Shown: in pieces, positions 30,259 through 38,628 of the stretch | How the letters are laid out: each line of letters opens with the position of its first letter | Numbering within the stretch: the first letter of the stretch is position 1 | Source of the DNA: a virus | Taxonomy: Duplodnaviria; Heunggongvirae; Uroviricota; Caudoviricetes | Virus record (IMG/VR): IMGVR_UViG_2711768037_000009 | Location: 1 to 38,628 of that record | Strand: one strand, 5' to 3' | DNA length: 38,628 nucleotides | Notes under the pieces: generated by a model | What the model was told of the DNA's origin: nothing | The model's database searches: none | The model's input: the letters and a program-made list of their open reading frames with translations, nothing else | Position numbers and translations under genes: made by a program

Positions 30259-30299
30259 CTATAGACGGCCCCAACGGGGCAGTCTCACAAGGATGTGAG

Positions 30300-30635
30300 A
30301 TGGAAAGACTGACTTTTAATTGGTATCCAGATTACGAATCTGAAAAAAGCGTAAAACCGAATGTAACGGTACTTAATTTTGGTGATGACTACGAGCAGCG
30401 ACAGGCTCAAGGTCTTAATCGCATTAAGGAAGAGTGGTCGTTAACTTTTAGCAGACAATACAACGAAATTAATGCCATTGATGATTTTTTGACTGATCGA
30501 GCTGGTGTTGAGTCATTCTATTGGGTAAACCCACGAGGTAAACGGATAGTGGTTGTGTGTGACAGCCATATGGTCAAACGCTATCAAGGTTACTGCGTGT
30601 TAACTGCTACATTCAGACAAGTGTTTGAGGTTTAA
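30300..30635 (+). CDS. Minor tail protein, lambda gpM-like (111 aa)
   Basis: Shares remembered gpM landmarks (FGDDY..Q...GLN, FYW, VVC, F.QV) at similar size. Confidence 0.8.
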   Translation: MERLTFNWYPDYESEKSVKPNVTVLNFGDDYEQRQAQGLNRIKEEWSLTFSRQYNEINAIDDFLTDRAGVESFYWVNPRGKRIVVVCDSHMVKRYQGYCVLTATFRQVFEV

Positions 30636-30669
30636 GTGTCTGGATAAGTAAATGCTAATTTACTATCAT

Positions 30670-30705
30670 GATGGTGATGGTGATGGTGATGGTGATGGTG
30701 ATGGT
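30670..30705. repeat. Hexanucleotide microsatellite (GATGGT)x6 in the M-L intergenic region
   Basis: Six perfect tandem units ~35 nt upstream of the L-like ATG. Confidence 0.8.
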
Positions 30706-30740
30706 GTCCTGCCAGCACCACTTATTTCAAGGATGAAACA

Positions 30741-31439
30741 ATGGGAATTAAAGCTGATATTCAGAGCTTATCTCCCTCTGCACTCATTGAGTTGTTCGAA
30801 CTGGATATGTCGAATACAACTTCAGGAGGGAAACTATTCTTCCACGCCGGAACAAACGAACTTATTCAGCCGGTCGTCTGGCAAGGAGTTACATATGAGC
30901 CGTGGCCAATCAAAGCATCAGGCTTTGACAAAACGGGCCAGGGGACGTTGCCACGTCCAAAAATTCAGGTATCGAACTTTGCCGGAACCGTCTCTGCGGA
31001 AGTTCAGGCAAACGACGATCTTGTTGGCTGTCGCATTATTCGCAAGATGACTCTGGCTCGCTTCCTCGATTCCGTTAATTTTAAAGATGGCAACCCAACA
31101 GCAGATCCAAACCAGCACTTCCCGGATGAAATGTGGTTTATCGAACAGAAAACACTCGAAACGCATCAGGTTGTCGAGTTTGAGTTGTCCAGTGTGTTCG
31201 ATTTGATGGGGGTGCAACTGCCGTATCGTCAGATCATTAAAAACACCTGCCCGTGGAAATACCGAGGGCCAGAATGCGGCTATACCGGTCCATATTTCGA
31301 CAAAAATAACCAGCAGACGTCTATGTCTGGTGCGGATTACTGCACAAAACGTTATGACGCCTGTAATGCACGTCGGAATTATTTTGCCGACGGTGTGATC
31401 CATTTTGGCGGATTTATTGGAGCTACGCGGTATGGGTAA
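30741..31439 (+). CDS. Minor tail protein, lambda gpL-like (232 aa)
   Basis: VSN...RFLD.VNF, NTC.W.YRG.ECGY.GP and C-terminal Cys cluster resemble the gpL Fe-S region. Confidence 0.85.
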   Translation: MGIKADIQSLSPSALIELFELDMSNTTSGGKLFFHAGTNELIQPVVWQGVTYEPWPIKASGFDKTGQGTLPRPKIQVSNFAGTVSAEVQANDDLVGCRIIRKMTLARFLDSVNFKDGNPTADPNQHFPDEMWFIEQKTLETHQVVEFELSSVFDLMGVQLPYRQIIKNTCPWKYRGPECGYTGPYFDKNNQQTSMSGADYCTKRYDACNARRNYFADGVIHFGGFIGATRYG

Positions 31440-35800: not shown

Positions 35801-37431
35801 TAGAAACGATAAAATCATCGGTTGATGAAAGTGTTGCGGCTGTAGAAGAAATGCAGAGAACAGTTGCTGAGGTAGGAAGAGTAAGTTCAGAAATCACAAC
35901 TAATCTTGAAGCAATTTCTAAGACAAATATCGATCTTGCGTTGCGGCAGGACGAAGATCAGCACAGACAGCTGGTAAATAACGCGAAAATTGCAACGACT
36001 CAAAAGATTCTTGTCGATGATGTGTCCGCAATGGCATCTAAGGTTGAAGAGATACGAGCCGAGATTGGTGACAACATTCGAGCATCTATTCTCGAAGAAA
36101 CGACAGCAAGAACCGACGCTGACAATGCGTTAGCCAGTAGCATGACACAATTACAGAGTAAATTTGAAAATGATATTAGTGCTGCTATAAGGTCAGAACA
36201 ATCCACTAGGGCATCAGCGAATGAAGCGCTTTCAACTCAAATTACTCAACTGGAATCTAAAGTCAATACAGATCTTTCCACTGCAATTAGAGAAGAGCGA
36301 CAAACAAGAGTCACTCAAAATGAAGCGTTATCAAGACAAATCAATCAATTGCAGGTAAAAATGGATGATGACATATCCGCTGCTATTAATGAGGAAAGAG
36401 AAGCCAGAGCATCAGGCGATAGTGCGCTATCAAGAGAAGTTAGTAGTTTAAAAACAAAAACAGGTAAAGACATTGCAGCGGCAGTAGCAGTTGAAACCAA
36501 AGCAAGAATTGACGCTAATGATGCATTATCCAGACAAATATCCTCGCTTACTACAAGGGCCAATGAGCTTGAGTCCTCGATAGAGCGAGAATCGACATCT
36601 CGTACAAGTCAGGATTCTGCCATTGCAAAAGACTTGACGAGTTTTAAAACAAAAACTGCTAAGGATATAAGTGCAGCTGTTGCGGTAGAAACCCAGGCAA
36701 GAACTGACGCTGATACCGCATTGACGTCGCAGATTAACTCACTAAAGACGCAAACTGGTAAAGATATAAAGGCTGCTGTGGCAGAAGAGACAAAAGCAAG
36801 AACTGATGCTGATGCGGCGCTTGCGACAAGAGTAACTAATCTCCAGTCGCAAACAACAAATGATATCAATGCAGCGATTACGTCAGAGTCAAAGGCCAGA
36901 ACAAGTGCAGACAACGCTCTAGGAAAACGAATTGATACACTGAAAGCGTCTGTAGATGGAAATGTTGCCGTTATTCAACAGCAGGCTTCTGCTATAGCTG
37001 ACGCAAATAGAAAAGTATCCACCTCGTACACATTGAAGATGGAAACTTCAACGAGTGGAGGGCAGAAGTATGTAGCGGGCATTGCGCTTGGTATTGATAC
37101 AGCGGGGCTTTCTCAGTTTTTGGTGCGGGCAGATCGATTTGGTTTGGTCAACAATGTTAATGGGAAGATCACAACGCCATTTGTTATCGAAAACAGCATT
37201 GCATATATGAACGGTGCTTATATCAAAGATGGCACTATCACAAACGCAAAGGTAGGTGACTTGCAATCAACAAACTTCGTAAGCGGACGAGCCGGATGGA
37301 GATTTGGCAAAAACGGAACGCTTGAGATTAACGGTAACAGTGGCGGAAATGGGAGATTAGTTATCAATGGGCAGAGGATCGACGTTTACGATGACAATAA
37401 TGTACTCCGGGTAAGAATTGGTCGGCTTTGA
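32824..37431 (+). CDS. Tail tip / host-specificity protein, lambda gpJ-like (~1535 aa) with C-terminal tandem-repeat coiled-coil region
   Basis: ORF track 32818..37431; ATG at 32824 after AAGGA; N-terminal half shares gpJ landmarks (RGLKIRVPSNY...WDGSFKP...PAWILFDLLTNSRYGLG...YCDE). Confidence 0.85.
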   Translation: MEQFKKKKLPLLIAGSGGKKSSKSSSRTPVEADDTVNSRAMASILDLLGEGVIGGLVNGARSIFVDDLPIVNEDGSSNFSGISWDFRDGSQDQTPMSGFDFVETPKSINIQLKKSHYVTVSIDNDEADRVRVIMKFPSLRRIDQKTGDTNGTTVEYKFQISNGDSTFVDVVAEGEKNVGIKLTAKKTGVYYRSYELKLPKPGRAYSIRVVRITDDNNGQYLYNDTWVDSIGEIVDTPMNYPNSALVGLKVNSEQFGGSMPSRSYLVRGLKIRVPSNYNEASNTYDGVWDGSFKPLSSSNPAWILFDLLTNSRYGLGQYVSESMIDLGQLYQIGRYCDEEVDDGFGGKEKRFAINTQITSRQDAYRLIQDIAGAFRGMVFWAGGMVNIMQDSPSDPVMMFTNSNVKDGLFTYKGSARKDRPSVALVTYNNKEDGYKQNIEYVEDQDAMRRYGERKTEVVAFGCTSRGQAHRVGLWLLYTARMESDVITFTAGLDASFLMPGETVLIQNKYRAGKRNSGRIVEFTKNSITLDAPVSLAKSGSFIRILNQKGKIVERDVLETGENITKVTFSKALSSAETPVLNGVWTITEPDLEPMRVRIVNIAQGETPGSFDITAVENNPSKYEAIDNGATLIPQNTTVLDPTYSKPSNLQITEGTYLSSPGNLSVKLTATWEGKSPVYWISWRRSDENNVSNWQSARVTEEQYEIVNVAENGRYDFQLYAVSFNGKKTEIISTVYQVLGTMTPPDAPMSLTAVGDYRNVILNWVNPDSVDLDHINVYASQTNNLDTAKLIAESASTTFTHAGLGDNETWYYWVRSANKRGMLSRPNSNLGTEATTRDVLSFLANKITSSELGQALNEEIDSKASQQAVDEINNHIVQSVESLEGEISALNKELMSSIDEFKTSFTERSDTLENAQSELRTEVSSTREKVDDALQQVENSNAALIELRNTVSEQGDSVAGVVEAANAALENASSLIAEEREARAQAELANAKKIETIKSSVDESVAAVEEMQRTVAEVGRVSSEITTNLEAISKTNIDLALRQDEDQHRQLVNNAKIATTQKILVDDVSAMASKVEEIRAEIGDNIRASILEETTARTDADNALASSMTQLQSKFENDISAAIRSEQSTRASANEALSTQITQLESKVNTDLSTAIREERQTRVTQNEALSRQINQLQVKMDDDISAAINEEREARASGDSALSREVSSLKTKTGKDIAAAVAVETKARIDANDALSRQISSLTTRANELESSIERESTSRTSQDSAIAKDLTSFKTKTAKDISAAVAVETQARTDADTALTSQINSLKTQTGKDIKAAVAEETKARTDADAALATRVTNLQSQTTNDINAAITSESKARTSADNALGKRIDTLKASVDGNVAVIQQQASAIADANRKVSTSYTLKMETSTSGGQKYVAGIALGIDTAGLSQFLVRADRFGLVNNVNGKITTPFVIENSIAYMNGAYIKDGTITNAKVGDLQSTNFVSGRAGWRFGKNGTLEINGNSGGNGRLVINGQRIDVYDDNNVLRVRIGRL
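36050..36960 (+). repeat. Tandem ~99-bp coding repeats (33-residue units, ~8-9 copies) inside the J-like gene
   Basis: Units such as DISAAIRSEQSTRASANEALSTQITQLESKVNT and DISAAVAVETQARTDADTALTSQINSLKTQTGK; coordinates approximate. Confidence 0.7.
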
Positions 37432-37525: not shown

Positions 37526-38628
37526 ATGTGGTACAGGGAAGGTACTATCACATTTACACAAGGCAGCAATACTCTGGTTGGTGCTGGGACAGCATGGAAC
37601 GTTACGGCCAATGGTGTGTTGCCTGGCATGATTGTCGTCGCACCTGATAATAAATTGTATGAAATTAAAAGCGTAACAAATGACACAACCTTAACGTTGG
37701 TTGAAAACTATACTGGTGAAACGCAAAGTAATATCCCATGTAGGATCATAACTACATACGAAGGAGATTTGACTCAGTTTAGTGCTCGATTTACTGCGCT
37801 TTTATCGAGAATGGCCGGTGATGCTAAAACTGTGCGTAATTGGCTAACGGCTGTAGATGAAATAACACTTGAGCGTGAAGATGGTACAAGTATTAATGTT
37901 AAACCTCTTGCGAAGATTATTGATGAGCATAATAAGCACGTAGAATGGTACGAAAATAATACGAATGTAATCGATGAAGCCAACACCAGAGTAAAGCAAG
38001 CTGCGGCAAGTGCTGCGGCAAGTGAAGAACTTGCCGCAGAGATTCTATTGCGAGCAGAGAATGCGACAACACGAGCAGAAGAGGCTGTATCAAGAGCTGC
38101 GACAGCATACGGGCCACAGGGACCAAAGGGCGATCGAGGAGAGAAAGGCGATAAAGGCGAGCAGGGGATTCAGGGCAAGACTGGTCCACAAGGGCCACGT
38201 GGTCTTCAGGGGGATACTGGTCCTGTTGGACCTCGTGGAGTTCCAGGACCTCAAGGGGAAATAGGCCCTCGTGGAGAAACTGGACCAAGAGGAGAAAAAG
38301 GTGATCCTGGTGGTCCACAGGGACCAAAGGGTGACACAGGACCAAGAGGGGAACAAGGACCTCAAGGCCCAAGAGGAGCTACTGGAGAGAGGGGACCACA
38401 GGGTTCCCGAGGACCGGCAGGTAGCGCCGGTCCAAAAGGGGAAAAAGGCGATCCAGGATCACAGGGTCCGAAAGGTGAAACGGGAGCAACAGGCCCAGCT
38501 GGTCCGCGGGGAGCGCAGGGACCGAAAGGGGAGAAAGGAGACCCCGGTCCCAGAGGTGAGCGTGGAGAAACCGGGCCGATGGGGCCAAAGGGCGAGAGAG
38601 GCGAGAGAGGCGAGAGAGGGGCGCAGGG
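37526..38628 (+). CDS. Tail fibre protein with collagen-like Gly-X-Y repeats; 3' end beyond window
   Basis: AAGGAG SD 10 nt upstream of ATG; open to the window edge; uninterrupted Gly-X-Y triplets from ~38100 (GPQGPKGDRGEKGDKGEQG...). Confidence 0.75.
   Translation, partial: MWYREGTITFTQGSNTLVGAGTAWNVTANGVLPGMIVVAPDNKLYEIKSVTNDTTLTLVENYTGETQSNIPCRIITTYEGDLTQFSARFTALLSRMAGDAKTVRNWLTAVDEITLEREDGTSINVKPLAKIIDEHNKHVEWYENNTNVIDEANTRVKQAAASAAASEELAAEILLRAENATTRAEEAVSRAATAYGPQGPKGDRGEKGDKGEQGIQGKTGPQGPRGLQGDTGPVGPRGVPGPQGEIGPRGETGPRGEKGDPGGPQGPKGDTGPRGEQGPQGPRGATGERGPQGSRGPAGSAGPKGEKGDPGSQGPKGETGATGPAGPRGAQGPKGEKGDPGPRGERGETGPMGPKGERGERGERGAQ

Follow-up and report, generated by a model that had tools for sequence, protein, structure and literature searches.

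The window (the whole 38,628-nt stretch of DNA analyzed here) carries a lambda-type tail-tip operon, in which the genes around the array described below follow the order tape measure, M, L, K, I and J with matching Pfam domains for M (PF05939), L (PF05100), K (PF14464 and PF00877, JAB and NlpC/P60) and J (TipJ/PF13550/PF09327). On the plus strand, the gene for an M-like minor tail protein of 111 aa (30300–30635; PF05939, Phage_min_tail; annotated as “phage tail protein” in an identical plasmid region) is followed by the gene for an L-like minor tail protein of 232 aa (30741–31439; PF05100, Phage_tail_L; annotated as “phage minor tail protein L”), and the 105-nt intergenic gap between them holds a tandem array of the hexamer GATGGT. 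The Shine-Dalgarno (SD) sequence of L, AAGGA (30729–30733, plus strand), is located 7 nt before the ATG, and CAAGGA is invariant across 43 relatives. The preliminary description portrayed the operon as otherwise compact, which is roughly right: no gap in the structural operon is larger than this one, although some others measure 60–100 nt. At the tape-measure/M junction (30282–30301), a hairpin (GTCTCAC-AAGGA-TGTGAGAT) has the SD of M as part of its loop and extends into the M start codon, where it ends; it may control translation.

Sequence similarity places the window in the SSU5/Cyrano group of phage-plasmids. Over 1.3 kb, it is 92–93% identical to Escherichia phages Cyrano, CMS-2020a and PhiR41_1; Salmonella phage SSU5 shares 80% identity with the window region, and 425 plasmids from Escherichia, Enterobacter, Yersinia, Salmonella and Citrobacter match. 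Plasmid pOkiPb01698_2 is 100% identical across the 501 nt around the repeat; its annotation includes four tRNA genes, metG, dfrA51 (a trimethoprim-resistant DHFR), nrdAB, thymidylate synthase, the DNA polymerase III alpha subunit and RecA. The repeat-bearing lineage is marked by a divergent mosaic patch of ~500 bp (30400–30900) that reaches from the 3′ half of M across the spacer into the first ~150 nt of L, with 69–91% identity to Cyrano per 100-nt bin and flanks at 95–100%. Possession of the repeat goes with the exact M and L proteins, whereas the exact K protein is common to the repeat-less allele as well (9,484 index blocks versus 748 for the exact M protein).

The array consists of six uninterrupted GATGGT units on the plus strand (30670–30705, read from the window sequence), in the order TTTACTATCAT, (GATGGT)x6, GTCCTGCCAGCACCACTTATTTCAAGGATGAAACA and the ATG of the L-like gene (30741), which begins 35 nt after the end of the last unit. 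TRF called the repeat at 30669–30706 with a period of 6, 6.3 copies, 100% matches, no indels and a score of 76, higher than that of any other TRF tandem repeat in the window. Sequence and TRF thus confirm the perfect (GATGGT)x6 array that the preliminary description had placed at 30670–30705, about 35 nt before the L start. The longest period-6 run measures 38 nt, compared with a maximum of 17 nt among 200 shuffles, and a regular-expression search of the 38.6 kb for perfect arrays with three or more copies and a length of at least 14 nt turned up just one more, a 9-mer present three times at 38591. By TRF, regular expression and shuffling, the locus is therefore made of head-to-tail perfect copies of a short (1–9 bp) unit. 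The other TRF repeats comprise the 9-mer GGCGAGAGA (x3.2, perfect, 38591–38619, close to the contig end), a perfect 12-mer (x2.1, 38000–38024), an 18-mer (x2.5, 38316–38361) and a 30-nt period (x3, 1833–1923). A Chi-like sequence in the repeat unit (GATGGTGA versus GCTGGTGG, 6/8) was dismissed as irrelevant by inspection.

We counted units in 22 assemblies, which comprise 19 distinct contigs, the window, pOkiPb01698_2 and a plasmid of E. coli 2014C-3307, from a lineage whose carriers number in the hundreds. The lineage was found by exact-protein look-ups (the M protein occurs in 748 index blocks and the L protein in 555), and all 19 distinct contigs returned by these look-ups bear the array. 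Unit numbers are 2 (five assemblies), 3 (two), 4 (one), 5 (two), 6 (five), 7 (five), 8 (one) and 11 (one), a broad spread with neither preferred states nor on/off classes. The flanks are near-identical in all 22 carriers, so that close relatives differ by whole units within conserved surroundings; for example, the plasmid of E. coli 2014C-3307 has three units in a spacer that is identical otherwise. Unit numbers differ even on identical 1,068-nt flank haplotypes (2/5/5/6/7 on one, 6/6/7 on a second and 6/7/8 on a third), and thus length has changed repeatedly and far faster than by point substitution. The preliminary description had considered the array prone to slipped-strand copy-number change and proposed counting units in related genomes; the result, 2–11 whole units, is the opposite of an identical copy number and reveals the anticipated variation directly, with slippage as its probable mechanism. 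Two carriers of one flank haplotype (L115, 1337–1452; L127) have arrays of a variant unit, (GATGTT)6 and (GATGTT)2, each followed by one GATGGT. In both, a point mutation has come to occupy the array except for its loop-proximal unit, which is still GATGGT.

The curated phage, plasmid and complete-genome sets yielded two carriers only (pOkiPb01698_2 and the E. coli 2014C-3307 plasmid). A pattern scan of IMG/VR for the 3′ junction of the array gave 0 matches, and the same scan of JGI metagenomes gave 20 chance matches, 0 of them in phage context. An exact look-up of the tape-measure protein returned only the window’s own contig (CXWY01000047.1 of draft assembly GCA_001269305.1, which the window covers in full) and did not enlarge the sample. 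The reverse complement of the array, (CACCAT)n, is a common His-tag primer sequence and literature matches to the string are cloning primers only, so we considered whether the array could be an assembly error or synthetic His-tag contamination. Such an origin has practically no probability: the array is found inside phage sequence in 22 independent assemblies, and no vector sequence flanks it in the window. Assembly error is not credible given that the arrays, at 12–66 nt, are shorter than sequencing reads and that two of the carriers are finished, complete plasmids. We therefore regard an artefactual origin as refuted on sequence grounds by the independent assemblies. As a side note, the (CACCAT)6 reverse complement could make contamination screens wrongly flag the locus as synthetic.

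We then asked whether a small protein could be encoded across the array in any of three open frames. On the plus strand, an Asp-Gly ORF (MLIYYH(DG)6...) starts with an ATG at 30652, extends for 132 aa and overlaps L out of frame, and a (Met-Val)n frame runs from 30668 to a TGA stop at 30734–30736, 4 nt before the L start, so that its end adjoins L and coupling would be possible. On the minus strand, antisense to the tail operon, a GTG start opens a 29-aa ORF with 13 His (VVLAG-His13-DSKLAFTYPDT). The absence of stops from the array in each of these frames could be taken to favor coding, but with a unit of 6 nt the frames stay open by construction. None of the three candidate ORFs has an SD, none is present in repeat-less relatives, and the 132-aa ORF conflicts with L over its out-of-frame overlap. 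Furthermore, in the peptides of the GATGTT arrays His-His becomes His-Gln and Asp-Gly becomes Asp-Val, which speaks against a coding role. We thus rejected the His13 micro-ORF and the Asp-Gly ORF (no SD, unconserved, altered by GATGTT arrays) as well as the (Met-Val)n upstream ORF (no SD, open only by construction), and the comparison of sequences leaves the coding interpretation largely refuted and very improbable. In the L frame itself, every GATGGT unit contains a TGA, and thus the L start cannot be further upstream. The array is non-coding, is situated in the leader of L and changes by whole units, in line with the earlier expectation that it would have no effect on reading frame. Hexanucleotide SSRs are rare in phage genomes and biased to coding DNA (PMC6426759), which bears out the rarity claimed for such arrays in the preliminary description and makes a non-coding, highly polymorphic phage hexamer unusual.

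At the same spacer, the repeat is absent from 80 of 80 IMG/VR loci and 4 of 4 GTDB loci. The region is matched by 203 E. coli complete genomes, 201 of them in the 80–90% identity band, and among the matches listed in that band all span 23 fewer bases, like the repeat-less allele. Thus, the repeat appears to be confined to one minor lineage. In the common layout of the M–L spacer, an AT-rich palindrome (for example, AGATAAGTA-AG-TACTTATCT) comes after the M stop and is itself followed by TATTAT; next come a GC-rich hairpin and a T-rich stretch, and then CAAGGA before the L ATG. The hairpin, GGCGCUGAC-AGGAU-GUUAGCGCC, occupies the same place as the stem-loop formed in the window by the end of the array (hairpin 2, below). 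It is located ~25–50 nt upstream of the L start in relatives (L001, L005, L028–L111), and the AGGAU-loop form is absent from the window.

A loop-anchored set of 47 sequences yielded 21 distinct GC-rich hairpins with stems of 9–10 bp and predicted stabilities of −14 to −20 kcal/mol. Two-sided compensatory changes occur at 6 of the 9–10 pairs (e.g., GGCGCUGAC/GUUAGCGCC versus CAACGUCAC/GUGACGUUG), the loop AGGAN is nearly invariant (AGGAU in 16/21 hairpins), and the closing C-G and A-U pairs are invariant (ACAGGAUGU). Canonical U-tracts follow the hairpin in some lineages (L071 and L082; TTTGTTTTTC and AGTTTTTC, as RNA GUUUGUUUUUC and AGUUUUUC), E. coli and SSU5 alleles have a weaker tract, UUAUUUC, and two lineages (L074/L103 and L106) have no U-tract. 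Together, these features suggest an intercistronic terminator/attenuator or a stabilizer of mRNA ends with an additional loop-specific function, and the nearly invariant AGGAU loop points to a sequence-specific partner, which might be either a protein or, through the SD-like AGGA, the ribosome. Searches against Rfam 15 covariance models gave best matches with E = 4–8, far below gathering scores. We also considered whether AGGA-loop hairpins form a genome-wide family and rejected the idea, as the 9 found versus 4.3 (maximum 10) in shuffles are not significant.

In the window, hairpin 2 (30696–30720, plus strand) has the sequence UGGUG-A-UGGU [GUCCU] GCCA-G-CACCA and folds at −11.1 kcal/mol. Its 5′ arm (30696–30705) is made of the last 1.5 repeat units, its loop is GUCCU and its 3′ arm covers 30711–30720. 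It was flagged as terminator-like. The stem-loop is stable and GC-rich, albeit weaker than in relatives. A T-rich tail (CTTATTTC, 30721–30728, plus strand) that is kept in E. coli and SSU5 alleles follows directly; the tract after the hairpin, CUUAUUUC, has 5 U in 8. The window arms, UGGUGAUGGU/GCCAGCACCA, retain the 9-bp/5-nt geometry of the conserved hairpin and the same distance to the T-rich tail and the SD. Pairing in the stem is imperfect at two positions only (A.G and U.G), precisely where the repeat unit departs from the 3′-arm complement: an idealized 5′ arm, GGUGCUGGC, would fold at −19.9 kcal/mol versus −11.1 kcal/mol as found, and the hairpin of the variant (GATGTT) arrays at −6.5 kcal/mol. 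In the window lineage, the AGGAU loop has been replaced by GUCCU, and this new loop shows complementarity to the SD core AGGA. As a source of GUCCU we checked loop inversion by template switching (reverse-complement match 15–16/23 versus forward 12–13/23; core 5/9 versus 2/9); this is suggestive only and we do not claim it.

The alleles at the low end of the size range connect the array with the conserved hairpin. The spacer of the 2-unit allele is 81 nt long versus 82 nt in the common repeat-less allele, and the two are collinear through a 12-nt 5′-arm region, a 5-nt loop and an 11–12-nt 3′-arm region. The array and the 5′ arm of the conserved hairpin are thus homologous, and in view of this collinearity, and of the weaker hairpin to which the last units contribute the 5′ arm, we infer that the repeat grew from the hairpin arm by slippage. 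In one minor lineage, the hairpin would have diverged until its 5′ arm read GATGGTGATGGT, that is, two units, and slipped-strand mispairing during replication would then have added and removed whole units to give the 2–11 of today. The whole spacer looks degraded in this lineage, with a weaker hairpin 2, loss of AGGAU and a degenerate upstream palindrome, and whole-spacer z-scores range from −0.3 to −1.8, compared with −3.2 to −4.2 in relatives. This suggests that constraint has been relaxed in the repeat lineage.

That upstream palindrome, hairpin 1 (GATAAGTAAATGCTAATTTACTAT, 30643–30666, plus strand), is conserved in 43 of 43 aligned relatives, across which its changes are one-sided and all preserve pairing. 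It sits between the promoter-like hexamers TGGATA (30641) and TATCAT (ending at 30669), which match at consensus level only. It occurs once in the window, so we rejected it as a repeated element at that scale; it is a degenerate copy of a family that becomes visible only across a whole plasmid. In the 108.5-kb plasmid pOkiPb01698_2, which is 87% coding, the pattern TA[AG]GT[AGT]-N2-8-[ACT]AC[CT]TA has 19 matches (~16 sites: 2401, 6440, 15547, 23352, 26869, 30303, 37339, 50666, 53292, 62281, 70957, 86021, 90993, 93211, 98044 and 107437), all 19 intergenic, versus a mean of 2.4 and a maximum of 6 in shuffles. Flanks are common to the sites and oriented (aataa / palindrome / tctttgtg), half-sites are spaced by 2 or 6 nt, and start codons follow 13–178 nt downstream. 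Possible roles of these palindromes in SSU5-type phage-plasmids include those of promoter, operator or RNA-processing elements, and we found no description of the family. In the J-to-fibre spacer of pOkiPb01698_2 (37317–37356), a palindrome, a hairpin with an AGGA-containing loop (GTGGGC-aaggata-GCCCAC), CTTATT and an SD repeat the M–L layout; the window counterpart is found just after the end of the J-like ORF (37431).

A palindrome of this kind next to a variable array raises the possibility that the repeat acts at the DNA level, altering the distance or helical phase between the palindrome, as a candidate protein-binding site or part of a promoter, and downstream DNA and hence binding or transcription initiation. 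The restriction of the family to intergenic DNA and the conservation of the palindrome beside −10-like hexamers in relatives are compatible with such a role. Spacing does not look critical, however, given that the palindrome-to-start distance varies from 13 to 178 nt across the family. Every length from 2 to 8 units occurs even though each 6-bp step would rotate the helix by ~205 degrees, and the window’s own copy of the palindrome is degenerate. We therefore consider an effect of DNA spacing quite unlikely.

To describe the predicted effects of unit number on RNA, we computed ViennaRNA partition functions for constructs of 0–12 units; these represent equilibrium folding, which ignores co-transcriptional kinetics, pseudoknots and proteins. 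The terminal hairpin is predicted for every construct of at least two units and lost at zero or one, and pairing of the 3′ arm is correspondingly 0.79–0.87 for all unit numbers of at least two and 0.55 at zero or one. The one-unit construct folds at −7.2 versus −11.1 kcal/mol, with the hairpin lost. The smallest unit number observed, two, is thus also the minimum that retains the predicted hairpin. The L SD has an unpaired probability of 0.92–0.97 at every unit number. From ~4 units, the surplus units are predicted to pair with the upstream UUACUAUCAU and to displace hairpin 1 in the MFE structure, a change of possible consequence should hairpin 1 work at the RNA level, and at six or more units the 3′ arm samples several pairing registers. 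A G-quadruplex from the GG-N4 runs never appeared in the MFE structure, with or without context, and was rejected.

These models bear on whether unit number is a heritable and reversible rheostat that tunes L, K, I and J, as the preliminary description proposed, and also the downstream fibre genes, be it through termination or pausing at hairpin 2, sequestration of hairpin 1 in RNA, or a changed 5′-UTR length, the last presuming a transcript that starts at the promoter-like site ending at 30669. The array is hypervariable, lies between two conserved regulatory-looking elements and has the terminator-like hairpin and the L ribosome-binding site directly downstream, and the models include both a leader-repeat helix that displaces hairpin 1 from about four units and alternative 3′-arm registers at six or more. 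On the other hand, SD accessibility and 3′-arm pairing are independent of unit number once there are two units, the array is neither between −35/−10 hexamers nor in an ORF, its lengths spread broadly without on/off classes, and the degradation of both flanking elements in the lineage resembles relaxed rather than refined control. On balance, we regard such tuning as rather doubtful. A true contingency locus, in which reversible unit changes would shift the balance among the palindrome hairpin, the leader-repeat helix and the terminator-like hairpin (or the anti-SD-like GUCCU), seems to us unlikely. If it existed, tail-tip and fibre protein levels would differ among lysogen subclones, bet-hedging virion production in an E. 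coli phage-plasmid.

Instead, we consider it reasonably probable that the array is a non-coding, slippage-driven and largely neutral VNTR that grew from the 5′ arm of a hairpin. Length changes would be tolerated because they fall on the 5′ side of the hairpin, spare the loop-adjacent unit and 3′ arm as well as the T-rich tail and L ribosome-binding site, and affect no reading frame. Judging from equilibrium folding, copy number may thus mostly drift above a floor of two units, the minimum for the hairpin, although this floor could reflect mutational dynamics instead of selection.

SSU5-type phage-plasmids, which bear resistance genes, are often found in E. coli of clinical or livestock origin, and (GATGGT)n offers a high-resolution length marker for one of their lineages. 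The locus is also an unusually clear natural case of a microsatellite born from one hairpin arm, in which the putative founder (2 units), the expansions and the unit-variant sweep are all still present in the population, and it draws attention to two conserved intergenic elements, the AGGAU-loop hairpin and the genome-wide palindrome family. To our knowledge, there are very few perfect, polymorphic SSRs in E. coli and its phages, and very few functional SSR switches in E. coli. If copy number affected tail-gene expression, the structural operon of a coliphage would hold an SSR switch, which would be a rarity. We found no description of the locus in the literature, where the string appears only as His-tag primers.

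Among known systems, the 13 consecutive His codons on the minus strand recall his-operon leader peptides and His-tags; unlike these, the stretch has no SD, is antisense and unconserved and is broken in variant arrays, and the likeness appears to be a by-product of the repeat unit sequence. Intercistronic terminators and stabilizing stem-loops offer a closer parallel, as hairpin 2 is GC-rich, precedes a T-rich stretch and lies between co-directional genes, and the hairpin of the relatives has a covarying stem with canonical U-tracts in some lineages. Generic terminators, however, are not characterized by an invariant AGGAU loop; moreover, two lineages lack the U-tract, Rfam has no match, and the window lineage has the loop replaced and the stem weakened. 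Contingency loci, such as the phase-variable SSRs of Haemophilus and Neisseria in ORFs or promoter spacers, share with (GATGGT)n a slippage-prone perfect short repeat upstream of genes for surface or host-interaction structures. In contrast to them, (GATGGT)n keeps frame and has no on/off length classes, and folding does not predict an expression effect. Its position does not match theirs either: it is intergenic and downstream of the sole promoter-like hexamer pair, hence outside any ORF and not flanked by promoter hexamers. The hexanucleotide VNTRs used in MLVA of enterobacterial prophages and plasmids, e.g., in Salmonella Typhimurium the 6-bp STTR6 (Gifsy prophage) and STTR10pl (pSLT), are similar in having perfect 6-bp units on a mobile element, conserved flanks, no demonstrated function and whole-unit changes far faster than point substitutions. 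They differ in that (GATGGT)n lies between genes of a phage tail operon and can be traced back to a hairpin arm. The locus is thus a microsatellite/VNTR by definition, unusual in its setting yet not a new kind of element.
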